Of a stretch of DNA of 64,000 bases, positions 35,989-45,709 are shown piece after piece; within the stretch, counting starts at the first letter, position 1; every line of letters starts with the position of its first letter. The DNA lies in assembly GCA_965218585.1 (NCBI GenBank), contig CBDCLE010000026.1, positions 32,001 to 96,000 of the forward strand, given 5' to 3'. The position numbers and the translations under genes were made by a program. Source of the DNA: Terriglobia bacterium. Lineage in GTDB: Bacteria > Acidobacteriota > Terriglobia > 20CM-2-55-15. The notes under the pieces were generated by a model, which was not told the DNA's origin, made no database searches, and was given only the letters and a program-made list of their open reading frames with translations.

Positions 35989-36002
35989 CGGGCTCTTAGC
36001 TC

Positions 36003-36590
36003 TCAGGCATCAACTGCGAAATATTGTGGCGCGTTGCCTTCGATCCATTTGATGTTACAGCCGGCACTCGGTACCTGCTCGGCACCAATCCCTCGTCCAG
36101 CCAGAGCGGCATCGACGGCAGATCGGAGATCCTCACCGGTGACCGGAATGTCGTTACCCGGGCGACTCCCGTCGAACTGACCTCTGTAGACGAGCCGCCG
36201 ATCCGAATCAAAGAGAAACAAATCCGGGGTGCACGCGGCATGATAGGCCTTGGCAACTGACTGCGTCTCGTCAAACAGGTAGGGAAAGACGTAGCCGGCG
36301 TCCTCTACTTCTTCTTTCATGTGCGCCAGGTCGTCTTCAGGAAACGCAACAGTGTCGTTGGAACTGATCCCGACAACGGCAAGCTCTGTTTTTTCGTAAT
36401 CACGCGCGAACTGCGCAAGCCCGGAACGGATATGTTTGACGAACGGGCAGTGGTTACAGATGAACATCACCAGAAGCGCTTTTTGATCCGCAAAGTCGTC
36501 GGAAGAAACCACATCTCCGCTGGTTGCCGGCAGACTGAACGCCGGCGCCTCGGTGCCCAGGGAAAGCATGGTAGATGGTGTCAATGGCAT
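36003..36590 (-). CDS. Thioredoxin-fold (AhpC/TSA-like) protein
   Basis: FICNHCPFV, AACTPD, YRGQFD, GCNIKW. Confidence 0.9.
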   Translation of the reverse strand: MPLTPSTMLSLGTEAPAFSLPATSGDVVSSDDFADQKALLVMFICNHCPFVKHIRSGLAQFARDYEKTELAVVGISSNDTVAFPEDDLAHMKEEVEDAGYVFPYLFDETQSVAKAYHAACTPDLFLFDSDRRLVYRGQFDGSRPGNDIPVTGEDLRSAVDAALAGRGIGAEQVPSAGCNIKWIEGNAPQYFAVDA

Positions 36591-36720
36591 AGGTTTTCAC
36601 CCCTTTCGTCGTTGTGCGGTTGTGCGCTCGGGCATGGGGAACCATCTAAAGGACGGTGGGGGCCATGCGAAGAGATGCCATAGCCGCCGCTTCCTTGCGC
36701 CCCCAGCGCACCTACAGGTC

Positions 36721-37620
36721 CTACGGCAGACCGCTGCGAACGACTTCTCGGATCGTGGCAATGCGGAGGGGATACGTCCCGATGACTTTCACCGTTGGCG
36801 TTCCCTGTTTCAACTGAGCGATCGCTTCCTTGACCGCTCGACTCTCCATGGTGCCGATGAAATCCACATGATAGACCGATTCGGAATGCGATCCACGAAC
36901 GGGACGCGACAGCACGTTCGTCAGGGGAATTCCGCATTCAACAAACGGGGCGAGCACACCCGACTCTCGCCGCGCCAAATGAGGCACCTGAAAGCATATG
37001 CTCGTCTTCAACGAATCGCTTTGGGGCTTCGCGGCTCGAGGATTGTCAGGCGCGGACAGGAGCAAAAACCGGGTGTAGTTTTCCGGGTGGTCCTGAATGC
37101 CTGACCTCAGAATCTCCCCACCGTAGACCTCCGCACTCCGGGCACTTCCGATCGCACCGGTGTGGGGCGTTTTTTCCCGGACGACGAGTTCAACGGCACC
37201 GGCGGTATCGAAAGCAGGCACAGGTTCCATCTTCAGATTGGTTCGAAGTGATCCCGCGCACTGGGCCAACGCGACGGGGTGAGAGAGTACCCGGTAAACG
37301 TCTTCGATACGTGTCCCTTTGGGAACGATCAGACAGTGCGAGATCGTCTGGACGGTCTCGTCGATGATGACGAGGTCGTTCTCGGCGAGCAGATCGTATG
37401 TTTCGTCGATCGGTCCGGCAAGCGTGTTCTCGACCGGAATGACGGCGTAAGGAGCCTGGCCCCCCTCGACGCTGTCGAACACTTCCTGAAGCGTCCGCAA
37501 CCCCAGGAGTCGGGATTCTTTAGGTACGAAATCGAAAGCGGCATCCTCGCTGAACGCACCCGGCTGTCCCTGGTATACGACGTCGTATTCGGATGTGCTT
37601 GTCGCTTCAGATATTGGCAT
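36721..37620 (-). CDS. pheA: Prephenate dehydratase
   Basis: YQGQPGAFSE, PVENT, SHPVALAQC, NYTRF; C-terminal ACT domain divergent. Confidence 0.88.
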   Translation of the reverse strand: MPISEATSTSEYDVVYQGQPGAFSEDAAFDFVPKESRLLGLRTLQEVFDSVEGGQAPYAVIPVENTLAGPIDETYDLLAENDLVIIDETVQTISHCLIVPKGTRIEDVYRVLSHPVALAQCAGSLRTNLKMEPVPAFDTAGAVELVVREKTPHTGAIGSARSAEVYGGEILRSGIQDHPENYTRFLLLSAPDNPRAAKPQSDSLKTSICFQVPHLARRESGVLAPFVECGIPLTNVLSRPVRGSHSESVYHVDFIGTMESRAVKEAIAQLKQGTPTVKVIGTYPLRIATIREVVRSGLP

Positions 37621-38788
37621 GTGCAGCAGCTGCCTTTGCGAGGGTCTGTCTTCCCTCTTCGCGCGTCCTCCTAATAATATCTCGAAAAACCTCTTCGACG
37701 GTCTCGTCCGGCAAATCGGCAACGCCTGCCCTCTGTCCGATGAGCCGAAGAATGACCCTGTCCAGGTTTCGGGTCCGGTTCCACCGAGCTCCGACGCTTC
37801 GTTTTTGGGAGGCCAGAACCAGAGCCAGAGATTCCATCATCCGTTCAAAGTCATCCAGAGTCAGAGACTGGGCTCCATCGCATAAGGCTGATTCCGGTTC
37901 CGGATGGACTTCAACGATCAGACCCGCTACGCCGGCGGCAGCGGCAGCCTTGGACAGGGGTTCGACAAGATTCCGATGTCCGGTTGCATGGCTTGGATCC
38001 ACAAATACGGGCAGGTGTGTGCGTTCTTTCAGCAGGACGGCAGATCCCAAATCCAGTGTGTTTCGTGTGGCCGTTTCGAAAGTGCGTATTCCCCTCTCGC
38101 AGAGAATGATGTTCAGGTTTCCCTGAAGCGCGATGTACTCGGCAGCCAGGAGCCACTCTTCTACGGTTGCCGACAGGCCGCGCTTCAAGAGCACGGGCTT
38201 GGCCGCCTTCCCCGCTGCTTCGAGCAGACTGAAGTTCTGCATGTTGCGTGCACCGATCTGAAGAACGTCGGCATGCTCAGCGACCAGGGGCACGTCTTCG
38301 GTGTTGAGCACCTCGGTAACAACCGCCAAACCAAGCGCTCGACCGGCTCGGGCCAGCAGCTCCAACCCCTTCTTTTCCAGTCCTCTGAAGGAGTACGGCG
38401 AAGTCCGGGGTTTAAACGCTCCGCCGCGAAGAATGCGGGCGCCGGCAGTGGCCACAGCACCTGCGGTGGCCATGACCTGTGCTTCGCTTTCAACGGCACA
38501 CGGCCCAGCCGCGACGACGAATTCGGAACCGCCGATTTCGATATCGCCGACACGGACTCGCGTACCTTCGGGACGAAGCGACCGATGGACAAGTTTGTAT
38601 GGAGTGTCGATCTTCTCCACCCGGGCGACGCCCGGCAGGGAACCGAAACGTCCGGGATCGTTGTTCTTGGCTGTGGAAACGACGATCGTATTGTCGATGA
38701 CCTGTGCCCTCTGAGTGTCAGGGTCCAGGACCGCCTGAACCCCTTCGATATCTGCCGGACTTGCGTCGGCCTGCATTCGAACTAACAT
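37607..38788 (-). CDS. aroF: DAHP synthase type I-beta with C-terminal chorismate-mutase-like remnant
   Basis: AAGGAGG RBS; AGPCAVES, GGAFKPRTSPY, IGARNMQN, CERG, DPSHA. Confidence 0.92.
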   Translation of the reverse strand: MLVRMQADASPADIEGVQAVLDPDTQRAQVIDNTIVVSTAKNNDPGRFGSLPGVARVEKIDTPYKLVHRSLRPEGTRVRVGDIEIGGSEFVVAAGPCAVESEAQVMATAGAVATAGARILRGGAFKPRTSPYSFRGLEKKGLELLARAGRALGLAVVTEVLNTEDVPLVAEHADVLQIGARNMQNFSLLEAAGKAAKPVLLKRGLSATVEEWLLAAEYIALQGNLNIILCERGIRTFETATRNTLDLGSAVLLKERTHLPVFVDPSHATGHRNLVEPLSKAAAAAGVAGLIVEVHPEPESALCDGAQSLTLDDFERMMESLALVLASQKRSVGARWNRTRNLDRVILRLIGQRAGVADLPDETVEEVFRDIIRRTREEGRQTLAKAAAAHANI

Positions 38789-38802
38789 TGTGAAACCTCC
38801 TT

Positions 38803-38850
38803 AAACGAAAAAAGGCCCGTTCCCCGTTGGTTCCGGAGAGCGGGCCTTTC
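38803..38850 (-). terminator. Attenuator terminator upstream of aroF
   Basis: Minus strand AAAGGCCCG..CGGGCCTTT followed by TTTCGTTT. Confidence 0.85.
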
Positions 38851-38870
38851 GGCTCTAAATGGTATCGGTA

Positions 38871-38978
38871 TTACGCCGTTACCCACCCCCCAGGGGACCA
38901 AAACCAAAAATAGCCCTCATACGAATAGAGAGATCCCGCAGCTGCGGAGCTATTCAGAGTTGTGGGTACGCAGTTCAT
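38871..38978 (-). CDS. Aromatic-rich leader peptide, 35 aa
   Basis: MNCVPTTLNSSAAAGSLYSYEGYFWFWSPGGWVTA*; preceded by AGGGAAG, followed by terminator. Confidence 0.85.
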   Translation of the reverse strand: MNCVPTTLNSSAAAGSLYSYEGYFWFWSPGGWVTA

Positions 38979-38996
38979 TTCTTCCCTAAAGAATTG

Positions 38997-39025
38997 AGTA
39001 TGCGGATCGGACCACAGTGTGTCAA
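38997..39025 (-). promoter_or_regulatory. Sigma70-type promoter of aro leader
   Basis: TTGACA-N17-CATACT on minus strand. Confidence 0.7.
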
Positions 39026-39038
39026 CAAGTTAAGAAAT

Positions 39039-39115
39039 GGGGTCAGAGCCCTATTTCCCTATTTAATAACGGAAATAGATGTAGGGGGAAAATGGGGAAA
39101 TAGGGCTCTGACCCC
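39039..39115. repeat. 21-bp perfect inverted repeat, REP-like, directly after ilvA stop
   Basis: GGGGTCAGAGCCCTATTTCCC ... GGGAAATAGGGCTCTGACCCC. Confidence 0.8.
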
Positions 39116-40390
39116 TTAAACCAGATAGCGGAGGAGGTCGGGACGGTCGTTCAAGTATTCTCCGAAGAAACCAAGTTCTTTCATTCGGCTGATGAGGGGT
39201 TCGAGGTCTTCCTTGTTTCTCAGCTCTATGCCGACAACAGCAGGGCCCCTCTCCCGGTCGGTCTTCTTGGAATACGCGAAGTGCGTGATGTCGTCGCCTG
39301 GCCCAAGGACGTCGACGACAAACTGACGGAGCGCTCCGGCACGTTGAGGAAAACGCACTATGAAGTAATGCTTCACGCCCTCGTAGATCAGCGCACGCTC
39401 CCGGATCTCTTCGATTCGACGAAAGTCGTTATTGCCACCACTGACCAGACAGGCCACCGTCTTCCCTTTCACCTGGTCCCGGAAGTCTTCCAGTGCGGAA
39501 ATAGCCAAGGCCCCGGCGGGTTCGACGATGATGCCATGATCGTTATAGAGCCTGAGGATCGTGGCGCACAGACGTCCTTCCGGAACAGTCACGACCTTAT
39601 CGAGGACATCGCGGCAGATCTGGAAGGTCAACTCGCCCACACGCTGCACGGCCGCACCATCGGTGAAAGCGTCAATTGTTTCGAGCGTCACCGGATGACC
39701 AGCCTGAAACGCTTCCATCATCGATGGAGCGCCTTCGGGTTGTACTCCGATGATTTCGGTTTCGGGAGATATCGCCTTGACCCAACTTCCGACGCCGGAA
39801 GCCAGACCCCCGCCGCCAACGGGCAAAAACATAATGTCGATCGTGTCACTGGCGTCATCGAGCATCTCGATACCGAGCGTGCCCTGGCCTTCAATCACAA
39901 CCGGATCATCGAAAGGATGGACATAGATGGATCCGTCGGCAGCGGTTCGACCGACGGCTTCGGCTTCGGCGTCGTCAAAAACATCGCCCACCAGTTCAAT
40001 GTCCACCAGCGATCCGCCGATCGCGCGCACACGTTCGATCTTCTGACTCGGCGTCGTCAAGGGCATGTAGATAGTCGCGTGGATTCCCAGCTTACTGGCA
40101 GCGTAGGCGACGCCCTGGGCATGGTTACCCGCACTTGCACATGAAACTCCCTTCCGGAGTTCCTCGTCCGAATAGCTGCGGATCTTGTTGTAGGCGCCTC
40201 GAATCTTGTAGGACCGGACAACCTGCAGATCTTCCCGCTTGAGCAGGATGTTGGCCTCGTAATCTTCCGAGAGGTGATCGTCGCGCTCCATCGGCGTCCG
40301 AACGGCGACGTTTTTTAAACGGCTCGCAGCCCTCCCGATGGCGTCCGTCGCCGGACGCCATGTCAGTTCGGGAGTTTCCTGCCGTGTCAC
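39116..40390 (-). CDS. ilvA: Threonine dehydratase, short biosynthetic form
   Basis: KREDLQVVRSYKIRG, SAGNHAQG, GGGGL, single ACT (FPQRAGALRQF). Confidence 0.95.
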   Translation of the reverse strand: MTRQETPELTWRPATDAIGRAASRLKNVAVRTPMERDDHLSEDYEANILLKREDLQVVRSYKIRGAYNKIRSYSDEELRKGVSCASAGNHAQGVAYAASKLGIHATIYMPLTTPSQKIERVRAIGGSLVDIELVGDVFDDAEAEAVGRTAADGSIYVHPFDDPVVIEGQGTLGIEMLDDASDTIDIMFLPVGGGGLASGVGSWVKAISPETEIIGVQPEGAPSMMEAFQAGHPVTLETIDAFTDGAAVQRVGELTFQICRDVLDKVVTVPEGRLCATILRLYNDHGIIVEPAGALAISALEDFRDQVKGKTVACLVSGGNNDFRRIEEIRERALIYEGVKHYFIVRFPQRAGALRQFVVDVLGPGDDITHFAYSKKTDRERGPAVVGIELRNKEDLEPLISRMKELGFFGEYLNDRPDLLRYLV

Positions 40391-41496
40391 TTGGCTACTT
40401 TTGCTTCCTTTGCGCTCGCCGCTCCGGTTGTTTCCTTTACCGGACGATCGGTCTTGGATTCGGGTCGCAACTGCCGCACCTGCTTCCCGGTACGCCAGAT
40501 CTCTTCACCGCCCAACTCGTCGAGTTCCGCCTCGAGACGGTCCCGGTAATCGTCCCTACCACAGGATTCGATGACGATTCCCGCTTCCTTTCCTGAGCGG
40601 ACACTTTCGTAGAGCTCTTCGTACACCGGAGTCACGGCTTCACGGAACTTATGCCGCCAGTCCAGAGCGCCTCTCTGAGCCGTCGTGGAACAGTTGGCAT
40701 ACATCCAGTCCATTCCGTTCTCAGCTACCAGCGGCATCAAGCTCTGGGTCAGTTCTTCAACGGTCTCGTTGAAAGCCTCCGAAGGCGAATGACCGTTCTT
40801 TCGGAGTACGTTGAACTGTGCTTCGAAAACGCCGGCAATCGCGCCCATCAGAACGCCGCGCTCACCGGTCAAATCCGAATAGACTTCCTTCTGGAAGTCG
40901 GTCTCGAACAGGTAACCGGAACCGACGCCGATACCGAGCGACATGACGCGCTCGGTGGCGCGCCCGGTCGCATCTTGAAAGATCGCGTAGCTCGAGTTCA
41001 ATCCCTTCCCTGCAACAAAGAGCCGCCGTAGGGACGTTCCGGAACCCTTGGGAGCAATCAACACGACATCGACGTCATCGGGTGGGATGACACCGGTCTG
41101 ATCCTTGAACGTAATCGCAAAACCATGAGAAAAATAGAGGCACTTGCCGGCCGTCAGATGCTGCTTGACCTTCTCCCACTGAGCGATCTGGCCGGCGTCG
41201 GAGAGCAGATACTGGACGATCGTTCCGCGTTTGGCCGCCTCTTCAATCTCAAAAAGATTCTCGCCTTCGACCCATCCGTCGCCAACGGCCTTGTCCCAAG
41301 AGCGTGAGCCTTTCCGCTGTCCCACGGTAACGTTGAAACCATTGTCCTTCAGGTTGAGCGCCTGTCCCGGCCCCTGTACGCCATAACCGAGGACCGCAAT
41401 CGTTTCATCCTTCATGCAGTCTCGGGCCTTATCGAGGGGCCATTCTTCGCGCGTTGTCACATTCTCCTCGACATCGCCAAAACGTATTTTCGCCAT
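40387..41496 (-). CDS. ilvC: Ketol-acid reductoisomerase, Bacteroidota/fungal Ilv5-like
   Basis: GYGVQGPGQ, LLSDAGQ, APKGSG, SDLTGERG, NCSTTAQRGALDW. Confidence 0.95.
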   Translation of the reverse strand: MAKIRFGDVEENVTTREEWPLDKARDCMKDETIAVLGYGVQGPGQALNLKDNGFNVTVGQRKGSRSWDKAVGDGWVEGENLFEIEEAAKRGTIVQYLLSDAGQIAQWEKVKQHLTAGKCLYFSHGFAITFKDQTGVIPPDDVDVVLIAPKGSGTSLRRLFVAGKGLNSSYAIFQDATGRATERVMSLGIGVGSGYLFETDFQKEVYSDLTGERGVLMGAIAGVFEAQFNVLRKNGHSPSEAFNETVEELTQSLMPLVAENGMDWMYANCSTTAQRGALDWRHKFREAVTPVYEELYESVRSGKEAGIVIESCGRDDYRDRLEAELDELGGEEIWRTGKQVRQLRPESKTDRPVKETTGAASAKEAKVAK

Positions 41497-41541
41497 GCTG
41501 TAGATAACCTCCGCTTTGGGGATGGAGCGACCGCCCCCAAT

Positions 41542-42048
41542 TTATTTTCCGTCGATCTGGGCAAGGACGGGCTTGGTAACCATTACTCTTCCCGACCTGA
41601 CAAACTCCATTACGCCAAAAGGCTCTAAACGACCAAACAGTTCTTCAATTTCATCCTGCGACCCGGTTTTTTCAACTACGACGTAACCCGCACCCGCGAC
41701 AAGGATCCGTGCGCGAGACGTCCTTACAATCTTTGAGAGCGAATTCCTAACGGACGCTGCATCGAGCGAAAGTTTAAACAACGCCACTTCACGGTCGTGG
41801 GTTTCGACGTCGCGATGGTAGCTCACCTCGATCACGCCAACTAACGCGCCAATCTGCTTGACGGCACGCCGTATCCGATCCGGGGCCGCGCGGACAGCAA
41901 TACTGTGCTGATAAACATTTGACGCTTCGCCATTCGTACAGGTGAAGCTTTCGATCTTTATGCGGTGCCGTCCCAAACAGGCCGCCAGGCGCAGAAGAGA
42001 ACTCGAGTCGTTCTCCGTACGCGCCGAAACTGTGAATTGCGGATCCAA
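41542..42048 (-). CDS. ilvN: Acetolactate synthase regulatory subunit, divergent
   Basis: TTG start after AAGAGG; ACT-like N-terminus, REVALFK, EKTG, EFVRSGRV; lies between ilvB and ilvC. Confidence 0.8.
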   Translation of the reverse strand: MDPQFTVSARTENDSSSLLRLAACLGRHRIKIESFTCTNGEASNVYQHSIAVRAAPDRIRRAVKQIGALVGVIEVSYHRDVETHDREVALFKLSLDAASVRNSLSKIVRTSRARILVAGAGYVVVEKTGSQDEIEELFGRLEPFGVMEFVRSGRVMVTKPVLAQIDGK

Positions 42049-42085
42049 TGATTGCCTCTTAGTGGCCTCCAGGAGGCCAGCCAGC

Positions 42086-43852
42086 CTATTCCAGGCGGAT
42101 CTCCGAGCAGGGTGAACCTGCAGGGACCATCGGGAATATGTTGTCTTCCCGTTCCACCACCACTTCCAGAAGGAAAGACGATTCCGATTGAAGCATCGCG
42201 TCAATCGCGTCACCAAGTTCTTCTCTTTGAACCACCTGTTTTCCTTCCATACCGTATGCCGCGGCGATTCCCACGAAATCCGGATTCATCAATTCGGTCG
42301 CCGAGTAACGCCGCGAAAAGAACAACTGTTGCCACTGACGCACCATTCCCAGGTACTCGTTGTTCAGAATCATCATCTTGACCGGAATCTTCGCCTGGAA
42401 GATCGTACCCAACTCCTGGAGGGTCATCTGAAAACCACCGTCGCCGATGATGGCGACGATGGGTCGATCCTGGCGGGCAACAGCTGCACCAATGGCCGCC
42501 GGCAGGGCAAAACCCATCGTCCCCAGACCACCGGAAGTTATCGTGCCACTACCTTCGTCGAACTTGTAATAGCGGGCTGCAGACATCTGATGTTGCCCGA
42601 CATCGGTCACAATGATGGCTTTGCCTTCGCTGCGTTCGGATAACTGATGAACGACCTCCGCCATGCGGAGTCCAGAAGAATCCGGATGAATGTCCTTCCG
42701 AATAACCCGGTTGATCTCGATCTGATCGCAAGCTCGAAACTCCGCAAGCCACTCGTGGTGGGACCGAGACCCGACAGCTTCGGCAAGGGCACCCAGGGCT
42801 TCGGCGGCGTCGGCGACGATCGCCACGTCTGTCTTGACGTTCTTGTCGATCTCCGAGGGATCGATATCAATGTGGATGATCTTTGCCTGCTTGGCGTACT
42901 TGGAAAGATCACCGGTCACACGGTCATCGAATCGCATCCCGACCGCGATCAGGACATCGCATTCATTGGTCTTGATGTTCGGCCCGTAGTTGCCGTGCAT
43001 ACCCAACATGCCGGTGTGCAGCCGATGGCGACTCGGCAGTGCGGACAACCCGAGCAACGTACACGCGAACGGAAGATCGGCTTTCTCAACCAAAGCTTGA
43101 AGTTCGGCCTGGGCTTTGGACAGCAGGACACCCTGCCCCACCAGAACAAACGGTTTTCTTGACCGATCGATCAACCGCGCACCGGCCTCAACACTCGCCG
43201 GGTCCAGCGTGGGCCGGGGCCTGTATCCTCTGACTTCGGACACAGTGGCCGGATGATAGTCGAAGGTCTCTATCTGAGCGTCTTTTGTTATATCTATCAA
43301 GACCGGTCCGGGACGTCCCGAGCGCGCTATGTACAATGCCTTGGCCACCACCTCGGGAACCTCTTCGGCCCGCGTGATTTGGTAGTTCCACTTCGTCACT
43401 GGGGCGCTGACCGAAATGATGTCGGTTTCCTGAAACGCGTCCGAACCCAGCATCTTCGAAGGCACCTGTCCAGTGATACATACCACTGGTGTGCTGTCGA
43501 TTTTGGCGTCCGCAATACCGGTGATCAGGTTCGTCGCGCCGGGCCCGGATGTGGCAATGCAAACGCCCGGCCTTCCCGAGGCGCGCGCGTAACCCTGAGC
43601 GGCATGAACCGATCCCTGTTCGTGGCGGACAAGGATATGCCGGATTTGATGGTCGTATTCAAACAGGGCGTCGTATACCGGCATGATCGCGCCGCCGGGG
43701 TACCCAAAAATTGTTCGGACACCTTCCTGCAACAACGAAAGCACAACCGCCTCCGCTCCCGAAACCGTCTGCGGCGGTTGGACTAAGGCTTCCGGTGTTC
43801 GGAGGTTGCCGGTTTCCTCTTCCCTGCTTACCGTTGTTTTGCTCTGTGACAT
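42086..43852 (-). CDS. ilvB: Acetolactate synthase large subunit
   Basis: FGYPGGA, RHEQG, TSGPGATN, RFDDRVTG, GDGGFQM, LGMVRQWQ. Confidence 0.96.
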   Translation of the reverse strand: MSQSKTTVSREEETGNLRTPEALVQPPQTVSGAEAVVLSLLQEGVRTIFGYPGGAIMPVYDALFEYDHQIRHILVRHEQGSVHAAQGYARASGRPGVCIATSGPGATNLITGIADAKIDSTPVVCITGQVPSKMLGSDAFQETDIISVSAPVTKWNYQITRAEEVPEVVAKALYIARSGRPGPVLIDITKDAQIETFDYHPATVSEVRGYRPRPTLDPASVEAGARLIDRSRKPFVLVGQGVLLSKAQAELQALVEKADLPFACTLLGLSALPSRHRLHTGMLGMHGNYGPNIKTNECDVLIAVGMRFDDRVTGDLSKYAKQAKIIHIDIDPSEIDKNVKTDVAIVADAAEALGALAEAVGSRSHHEWLAEFRACDQIEINRVIRKDIHPDSSGLRMAEVVHQLSERSEGKAIIVTDVGQHQMSAARYYKFDEGSGTITSGGLGTMGFALPAAIGAAVARQDRPIVAIIGDGGFQMTLQELGTIFQAKIPVKMMILNNEYLGMVRQWQQLFFSRRYSATELMNPDFVGIAAAYGMEGKQVVQREELGDAIDAMLQSESSFLLEVVVEREDNIFPMVPAGSPCSEIRLE

Positions 43853-45628: not shown

Positions 45629-45709
45629 CTAACCCGGCCCCCCTCGCGTAAGGGAGCTAATCCCTACACCTACGATTACGATGGGGGTCCCACAGTTGGT
45701 CGGTCGCAT
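45629..45709 (-). CDS. ilvL: Ile/Val/Leu leader peptide, 26 aa
   Basis: [26 protein letters not shown]; followed by terminator. Confidence 0.85.

Follow-up and report, generated by a model that had tools for sequence, protein, structure and literature searches.

What controls an operon that combines the first common step of aromatic amino acid synthesis with the phenylalanine branch and holds no trp gene? [quoted passage not shown] A sequence-only reading of the window had proposed that one leader peptide upstream of aroF-pheA senses tyrosine (Tyr), phenylalanine (Phe), and tryptophan (Trp). The parts that it listed, namely a promoter, a ribosome-binding site, a 35-amino-acid (aa) open reading frame (ORF) with 3 Tyr, 2 Phe, and 3 Trp, and a terminator, are all present, on the minus strand. 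We conclude that the operon is very probably controlled by a ribosome-mediated (leader-peptide) transcription attenuator, as had been claimed, since its full anatomy can be traced: a promoter and short ORF, a cluster of end-product codons, an intrinsic terminator, and a mutually exclusive antiterminator.

The leader, its terminator, and its antiterminator

The leader unit occupies 38803-39025 of the minus strand, and its surroundings, read 5' to 3', run from the end of ilvA through a palindrome, the promoter, the leader ORF, and the terminator to aroF and pheA. The features of the unit, in window coordinates, are as follows.

39020-39025, minus strand: -35 hexamer TTGACA (consensus scan and sequence)
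38997-39002, minus strand: -10 hexamer CATACT, with a 17-nt spacer from the -35 hexamer; 10 of 12 consensus positions match
38981-38987, minus strand: weak Shine-Dalgarno (SD)-like AGGGAAG 5' of the leader ATG, weaker than the aroF SD (sequence)
38871-38978, minus strand: leader ORF, 35 codons plus TAA, MNCVPTTLNSSAAAGSLYSYEGYFWFWSPGGWVTA (ATG at 38978, TAA at 38873-38871)
38962-38970, minus strand: possible region 1, CGUACCCAC, pairing with the 3' half of region 2 (full-length minimum free energy [MFE] fold)
38898-38927, minus strand: regulatory codon cluster, Y18 UAU, Y20 UAU, Y23 UAU, F24 UUU, W25 UGG, F26 UUU, and W27 UGG (sequence)
38881-38893, minus strand: region 2, antiterminator 5' strand CUGGGGGGUGGGU, codons P29 to V33 including W32 (duplex and constrained folds)
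38834-38846, minus strand: region 3, terminator 5' arm GGCCCGCUCUCCG, common to antiterminator and terminator (folding and duplex energies)
38808-38826, minus strand: region 4, terminator 3' arm CGGGGAACGGGCC (38826-38814) and U6 tract (38813-38808) (folding and covariation)

In a consensus scan, the sigma-70-like promoter was the sole promoter-like site in 38500-39400, where shuffled sequence would yield 0.4, and the arrangement TTGACA-17-CATACT recurs upstream of two of the closest aroF homologues, L002 and L003, with a TTGACT variant in a third (L004). Seven of the eight aromatic codons of the leader fall within codons 18-27, and the leader stop lies 82 nt from the aroF ATG. All five Tyr and Phe codons of the cluster are of the minor, U-ending type (genome usage UAU 36%, UUU 32%), for which the chance is about 0.005 if codons are independent; this bias counts as weak evidence because the leaders of relatives use both synonymous codons. 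The combination is rare in the genome as a whole: in six frames of 4.55 Mb, we found seven aromatic-dense short ORFs (ATG start, at most 60 aa, at least 6 aromatic residues per 10-residue window), and a terminator follows within 120 nt in one of the seven, which is the aroF leader.

The intrinsic terminator (38846-38808) reads GGCCCGCUCUCCG-GAACCAA-CGGGGAACGGGCC followed by UUUUUU, and its fold of -29.8 kcal/mol was matched by none of 200 shuffles (mean, -16.3 kcal/mol; z, -4.59). A simple consensus terminator scan did not list it, presumably because a C.A mismatch breaks the stem. Its 5' arm has an alternative partner in the G-rich region 2, which lies inside the leader ORF, 7 nt 5' of the stop codon, the pairing being GGGGGGUGGG(U) with (G)CCCGCUCUCC. 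The duplex of region 2 with the arm reaches -21.5 kcal/mol, compared with a mean of -13.6 kcal/mol for shuffled tails (z, -2.76; 1.7% of 300 shuffles as good), which bears out the alternative antiterminator pairing of the sequence-only reading.

The position of the ribosome was modelled by masking 27 nt of a transcript folded as far as the terminator loop, so that its 3' arm had not yet been made. When the A site was placed at Y18, Y20, Y23, F24, W25, or F26, 11 to 12 nucleotides of the 5' arm paired with region 2, the antiterminator being fully free, with 12 nucleotides paired, for the mask at W25. With the A site at W27, 8 of the 13 arm nucleotides still paired, and with the mask at the leader stop codon only 3 did so. 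A further pairing, of 38970-38962 with 38886-38877, appeared in the full-length MFE fold (whole-leader z, -2.08; 9 of 200 shuffles as good) and was absent from the fold made before the 3' arm. Regions 1 and 2 could form an anti-antiterminator, and a similar upstream C-rich segment is found in L002 and L003.

These elements suggest the following course of events. Transcription would begin near 38990, about 12 nt 5' of the leader ATG. With full charging of the Tyr-, Phe-, and Trp-tRNAs, translation would proceed to the UAA, where the ribosome would stop and cover region 2 (38893-38881), so that the terminator (38846-38808) would fold and transcription would stop short of aroF. If any one of the charged tRNAs is scarce, the ribosome would stall within Y18-W27 and leave region 2 exposed to pair with the emerging terminator 5' arm, and RNA polymerase would then continue past the terminator into aroF and pheA, the genes for DAHP synthase I-beta and prephenate dehydratase.

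Aromatic leaders at other type I-beta DAHP synthase genes

The sequence-only reading had proposed a search for aromatic-rich short ORFs upstream of aroF homologues, and a search of this kind was made. AroF was searched in 40 related genomes and in a scan of one genome per species, of which the best 80 loci were taken; together, 105 loci could be examined, a non-random sample made up of relatives and best-scoring loci. A locus was counted if it carried a sense-strand, ATG-initiated small ORF (sORF) of 8-60 aa in which some stretch of 8 residues has 5 or more aromatic ones. In the four closest aroF homologues (L002-L005; 60-69% identity), an aromatic leader and a terminator of the form GGCCCGCUC...GAGCGGGCC stand at the same position in all four cases, and pheA follows aroF in all four. 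The leaders of these homologues, and one from Geomonas, read as follows.

L002: ...CLYSFTYYFTFTLTGGWVVA
L003: ...SLAWFSGYYWFPPPGRCVKV; ilvA kept upstream
L004: MSNYFFAFNPYFYFPPRGWVK
L005: MSRRIGFAFSFYFYFFPGGERA
L076 (Geomonas propionica Red259): MINTGYFTFTNFYFWYGFYFRPSPRVEV, upstream of a DAHP synthase gene

Aromatic leaders also occur in more distant members of the class (L006, L015, L016, and L017), and six further loci of the same family, encoding I-beta enzymes 50-54% identical, showed no aromatic leader. Over the whole sample, 32 of the 105 type I-beta loci carried an aromatic sORF on the sense strand, compared with 6 of 105 in the antisense control; an earlier definition of the upstream region, which misplaced it for proteins without the N-terminal domain, had given 29 sense, 3 antisense, and 0 downstream-control cases. 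The records of the carriers are labelled Planctomycetaceae, Pirellulaceae, Thermoguttaceae, Lacipirellula, Terriglobia, Bryobacterales, Solibacteraceae, Geobacter, Geomonas, Syntrophaceae, Clostridia, Actinobacteria, and Methylomirabilis, i.e., at least six phyla. What is kept among relatives is the composition of the leader rather than its peptide sequence, and what is kept across phyla is aromatic content in one frame with a start and a stop rather than nucleotide sequence.

All three aromatic residues are present in the clusters of 23 of the 32 leaders, Phe and Tyr in 8, and Phe and Trp in 1. The cluster windows hold 380 residues in total, of which 100 are Phe, 73 Tyr, and 38 Trp. As Trp makes up 1.3% of the codons in the long ORFs of the genome, it is about eightfold enriched in these windows, which argues that Trp is selected in the clusters generally. 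The claim of one sensor for three amino acids thus agrees with leader composition, while responsiveness to each of the three is inferred.

The secondary structure is conserved alongside composition. By the criteria used, a terminator was present in 32 of 37 candidate leaders, and in 32 of these 37 the hairpin is succeeded by a U-tract. In 10 planctomycete-type leaders, 90% of the cells of the terminator helix are paired, 9 of its 13 pairs have changed on both sides, and none of 500 shuffles scored as high; with the partner shifted by one column, pairing fell to 55-63%. Column covariation is limited to this helix because in the MAFFT alignment region 2 fell into different columns for the two sequence types, and the antiterminator was therefore tested by duplexes calculated per sequence and by a matrix of own versus other arms. 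In this 32 x 32 matrix, a tail paired with its own arm at -13.4 kcal/mol and with the arms of other loci at -10.5 kcal/mol (means), and after double-centring none of 10,000 permutations reached the observed own-arm preference. Arm GGCCCGCUCUCC goes with tail GGGGGGUGGGU at the aroF leader studied here and arm GGCCCCGAGACC with tail GGUCGCGGGGUC in L068 (Thermoguttaceae), and where the arm differs the tail follows it, as in GCCGUCUGCCCGG with CCGGGGCAGAC (a Geobacter metagenome-assembled genome [MAG]) and GCGGUCGU with GCGACCG (a Clostridia MAG).

From this survey, we tentatively propose, at a little short of an even chance, that the Terriglobia leader belongs to a large, uncatalogued class of tri-aromatic (Phe, Tyr, and Trp) attenuators that guard type I-beta DAHP synthase genes and integrate the charging of three tRNAs. 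By record labels, such a class would span Planctomycetota, Acidobacteriota, Geobacter/Syntrophus-type deltaproteobacteria, Clostridia, Actinomycetota, and Methylomirabilota.

As a separate observation, Pro-Pro stands right after the aromatic cluster in L003, L004, L055, L068, and L085 (FPPPGR, FPPRGW, YPPI, SPPGRG). In the planctomycete-type leaders (L003, L004, L068, and L085), Pro-Pro-Gly/Arg may act as a programmed pause that keeps the ribosome over the antiterminator strand, or the stretch may just encode the CCN-CCN-GGN of that strand.

Amino acids sensed and rival explanations

That leader translation governs read-through, and which amino acids trigger it, we infer from the arrangement of the codons and the pairings. 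A response to Phe and/or Tyr is likely, and a physiological response to Trp as well is somewhat favoured on the composition of the clusters. Several observations weigh against these conclusions. In every modelled state that contains the 3' arm, the terminator prevails at equilibrium, and therefore the read-through decision must be kinetic, as in classical attenuators; moreover, the ribosome-free transcript folded before the 3' arm also shows the antiterminator. With a ribosome held at Y18, region 1 would be 20 nt behind it, and since short leaders in relatives lack the space for such a segment, the role of region 1 is uncertain. The SD of the leader ORF is weak. Among the sampled I-beta loci, 73 of 105 have no such sORF by the survey criterion, and the pairing of tail and arm is modest when set against shuffles (median z, -1.5; at most 5% of shuffles as good in just 11 of 32). 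Three of the four closest relatives (L002, L004, and L005) have Trp in the structural tail alone and none in the cluster. In Corynebacterium glutamicum, a Phe-Tyr-Phe leader answered to Phe, while Tyr availability was without effect, according to a review (PMC11802643), and the presence of a codon is therefore no proof of sensing.

The last two points lead to the alternative that the attenuator is effectively a sensor of Phe, or of Phe and Tyr, in which the Trp codons are either tolerated or kept for structure, the latter being clear for W32 in region 2. We consider this unlikely. It would suit an operon that pairs DAHP synthase with the Phe-branch PheA, and the clusters of L002 (YSFTYYFTF), L004 (YFFAFNPYFYF), and L005 (FSFYFYFF) are of the expected kind; a stall at W27, which leaves 8 of 13 arm nucleotides paired, and the response of C. 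glutamicum aroR (F-Y-F) to Phe limitation only (PMC11802643), are also in its favour. In contrast, the enrichment of Trp (38 of 380 residues versus 1.3%), the presence of all three residues in 23 of 32 leaders, and the fully free antiterminator upon a stall at W25 are better explained if Trp is read as well, Trp being made by the same pathway that DAHP synthase feeds and trpE having no leader of its own in this genome.

The remaining alternatives set aside either the peptide or the intrinsic terminator. If stalling controlled aroF through Rho-dependent termination, or through translational coupling with sequestration of the SD, the pairing of the terminator flanks with the aroF SD region in the full-length MFE fold would be accounted for. 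Rho-dependent leader control exists in other systems and offers a precedent. Such a route is nevertheless very unlikely, given a canonical GC-rich hairpin with U6 that is conserved with covariation and the U-tract after the hairpin in 32 of 37 candidate leaders. A switch set by a protein, by a tRNA in the manner of a T-box, or by a small-molecule riboswitch, with the aromatic ORF incidental, would fit the weak leader SD and is very unlikely indeed: no Rfam family (T-box, riboswitches, or known leaders) matched 36000-42500 at E values up to 1, aromatic content in one frame with a start and stop is kept across phyla where nucleotides are not, sense cases outnumber antisense ones by 32 to 6 of 105, and region 2, inside the ORF at 7 nt from its stop, occupies the very place that a ribosome would cover on terminating. 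Finally, since short ORFs are common in any sequence and the peptide is hydrophobic and aromatic, the leader might be a chance ORF beside an ordinary terminator belonging to the end of the ilv operon upstream, or it might encode a functional small protein rich in aromatic residues. This is barely credible, as ilvA has a hairpin of its own upstream of the promoter, whereas the leader terminator lies downstream of the promoter, directly ahead of the SD of aroF; the genome-wide control singled out one ORF of seven, composition is conserved rather than peptide sequence, and the tail co-varies with the terminator. The preferred reading thus remains a ribosome-mediated attenuator that acts on aroF-pheA through the intrinsic terminator.

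The operon, other loci of the genome, and known systems

The genes that the leader is proposed to govern, and its upstream boundary, are as follows.

37607-38788, minus strand: aroF, type I-beta DAHP synthase (PF00793 at 2e-80; NF006421, TIGR01361)
38796-38802, minus strand: aroF SD AAGGAGG, strong (sequence)
36721-37620, minus strand: pheA, prephenate dehydratase (PF00800)
39033-39123, no strand assigned: long palindromic hairpin after the ilvA stop, upstream boundary of the leader unit (spurious Rfam miRNA-model matches)

The pheA ATG (37620) lies inside the end of aroF (stop 37609-37607), an overlap of 14 nt (37607-37620), and the two genes are therefore taken as one operon; the overlap also suggests translational coupling. 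Against NCBIfam models, PheA scored 202.1 bits with NF008866 (cutoff, 359) and 192.7 bits with NF008865 (cutoff, 219), both under the curated cutoffs. AroF begins with a ferredoxin-like domain at its N-terminal end, and a chorismate-mutase remnant forms its C-terminal part. This C-terminal extension (37610-37852, minus strand) is of the type II chorismate-mutase kind, and its sole CM_2 match is the last helix (E value, 0.002); compared with the full CM_2 domains of L002, L004, and L005, it lacks about 33 residues, the middle of the domain among them, and the domain of L003 is decayed at its C-terminal end. Judged by these losses, the chorismate-mutase domain of AroF is decaying, and a separate CM_2 gene stands elsewhere in the genome (G000:C19:164094-164333). 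Upstream, ilvA ends at 39116, and the palindrome (39033-39123), near-perfect over about 90 nt, has the form GGGGTCAGAGCCCTATTTCCCC...GGGAAATAGGGCTCTGACCCC. It is also found 3' of ilvA in four congeners, a 17-mer of its arm occurs 14 times in the genome, and it looks like a REP-like dispersed palindromic element. The Rfam matches in 36000-42500 were spurious miRNA and small RNA models only, those of the miRNA type falling on this palindrome; Phe_leader, Trp_leader, other leaders, T-box, and riboswitch models gave no match in that interval at E values up to 1.

The genome holds three PF00793 genes, namely aroF, a KDO8P-synthase-like gene, and an AroG-type I-alpha DAHP synthase (NF006723, 580 bits), which lies outside the window at G000:C26:317397-318461 (locus L113, 898-1962, minus strand); a type II DAHP synthase was not found in the genome. 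Among the ORFs of the region upstream of the I-alpha gene, there was no aromatic leader. The I-alpha enzyme is common to all four congeners (83-84% identity) and present in 14 of 25 genomes searched; most other sampled genomes of the family show I-alpha or I-beta, and the genome studied here has both. In the four congeners, pheA (80-84% identity) comes directly after ilvA and the palindrome, and both the leader and aroF are missing. Because the I-alpha enzyme is present and the congeners do without the module, the leader and aroF form an accessory isozyme unit, and as judged from gene content the element controls this accessory DAHP synthase and not the sole one of the cell. The claim that a single control at the shikimate entry step replaces isozyme or repressor logic is therefore not supported for this genome: it encodes a second DAHP synthase without an aromatic leader, and this I-alpha enzyme is the one that all four congeners share, none of which has the leader-aroF module. 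The synteny with L003, where ilvA is kept upstream, points to probable inheritance of the module, with a later loss from the congeners.

At the Trp branch, trpE (L111, G000:C25:85577-89341) had no Trp leader in the 600 nt examined. It overlaps a hisI-like gene upstream and is followed by trpG, with hisF-like sequence further upstream, and a Trp-specific leader was therefore rejected for this hisF-hisI-trpE-trpG run. Neither PF02153 (prephenate/arogenate dehydrogenase N-domain), matched in 14 of 14 control genomes, nor PF00351 (phenylalanine hydroxylase) was found in the 95%-complete assembly, so that neither enzyme accounts for a route to tyrosine there.

A second leader-peptide attenuator of the same design lies between leuB and ilvD in the window (45745-45570, minus strand). 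It comprises TTGACA at 45745-40, an Ile/Val-rich sORF from its ATG at 45709 to 45629, a G-rich tail, and a terminator at about 45604-45579 followed by U8; the -10-like hexamer ends 7 nt before the ATG, and the leader mRNA may be nearly leaderless. The organism thus appears to use the attenuator design elsewhere, which supports the interpretation of the aroF leader as an attenuator. A genome-wide search for leader peptides at strict thresholds gave no further convincing case; as the Ile/Leu/Val threshold missed the ilvD leader, this search says little about the number of attenuators.

With the aroF leader, aromatic amino acid biosynthesis gains a concrete mechanism of control and an unannotated regulatory gene, no such control having been found described for this lineage in the full-text literature searched. 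Its physiological weight in the organism may be modest because the module is an accessory isozyme that close relatives lack. If the proposal is correct, a shared shikimate entry enzyme would be governed by one multivalent translational sensor and not by per-product repressors. The breadth of the tri-aromatic leader class is the most interesting aspect, more than the Terriglobia copy: recurrence in many phyla (32 of the 105 sampled loci) would provide a cheap annotation rule for DAHP synthase regulation, and the leader a compact natural part for aromatic amino acid biosensors. No leader with Phe, Tyr, and Trp at a DAHP synthase gene was found described in the full-text literature, although subscription papers and supplements, such as that listing 14 Deinococcus deserti leader peptides (PMC4007540, table S9), may hold one.

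The proposed attenuator is of the classical Yanofsky type and not a new mechanism, and its relation to known systems is one of shared architecture with different codons, targets, and hosts. With the attenuators of Escherichia coli pheL-pheA and trpL-trp (Rfam Phe_leader and Trp_leader), each of which senses a single amino acid, it shares a short ORF of end-product codons, alternative antiterminator and terminator hairpins, and a U-tract; unlike these, it has region 2 within the ORF and not 3' of it, and its 1:2 hairpin is of uncertain role. Multivalent leaders are classical in enterobacteria, at the thr operon (Thr and Ile) and at ilvGMEDA (Leu, Val, and Ile). As in these, one leader would read several amino acids whose synthesis shares the regulated enzymes, whereas here the amino acids are aromatic, the genes targeted are those of the common entry enzyme and of a single branch enzyme, and the sequence families are unrelated.

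For DAHP synthase genes, the mixed-aromatic aroR leader of C. glutamicum was reportedly studied by Neshat et al. in 2014. Besides the multivalent enterobacterial leaders, the sequence-only reading had missed two precedents at aroF: aroR (PMC11802643) and an upstream ORF (uORF) at Acholeplasma aroF (PMC8632094). The latter, uORFC-13-1, is described as a uORF by an intrinsic terminator, exclusively upstream of aroF, with aromatic sensing proposed via translation speed; at least one Phe is coded from a U-run, and the element is confined to Acholeplasma and environmental sequences (PMC8632094). It shares with the Terriglobia leader a uORF adjoining an intrinsic terminator upstream of aroF and, unlike it, is described there without a Tyr/Trp cluster (PMC8632094). 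Attenuators have likewise been predicted upstream of the aroA(I-beta) operons of Thermus thermophilus, Thermoanaerobacter, and Bacteroides thetaiotaomicron (Merino database, cited in PMC1173090, Table 7); these share a terminator/antiterminator pair upstream of an I-beta DAHP synthase operon and are structure-only predictions, described there with neither leader peptide nor codon content. In aroR, a Phe-Tyr-Phe leader stands before the aroF operon, and stalling raises read-through under Phe limitation, according to the review (PMC11802643). The mixed-aromatic leader before a DAHP synthase gene is common to both cases, and architecture and target class agree, as judged from that description. 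The Terriglobia leader differs from what is described there in its seven regulatory codons spread over Tyr, Phe, and Trp, in its target, an I-beta enzyme with a chorismate-mutase remnant coupled to pheA, and in its phylum.

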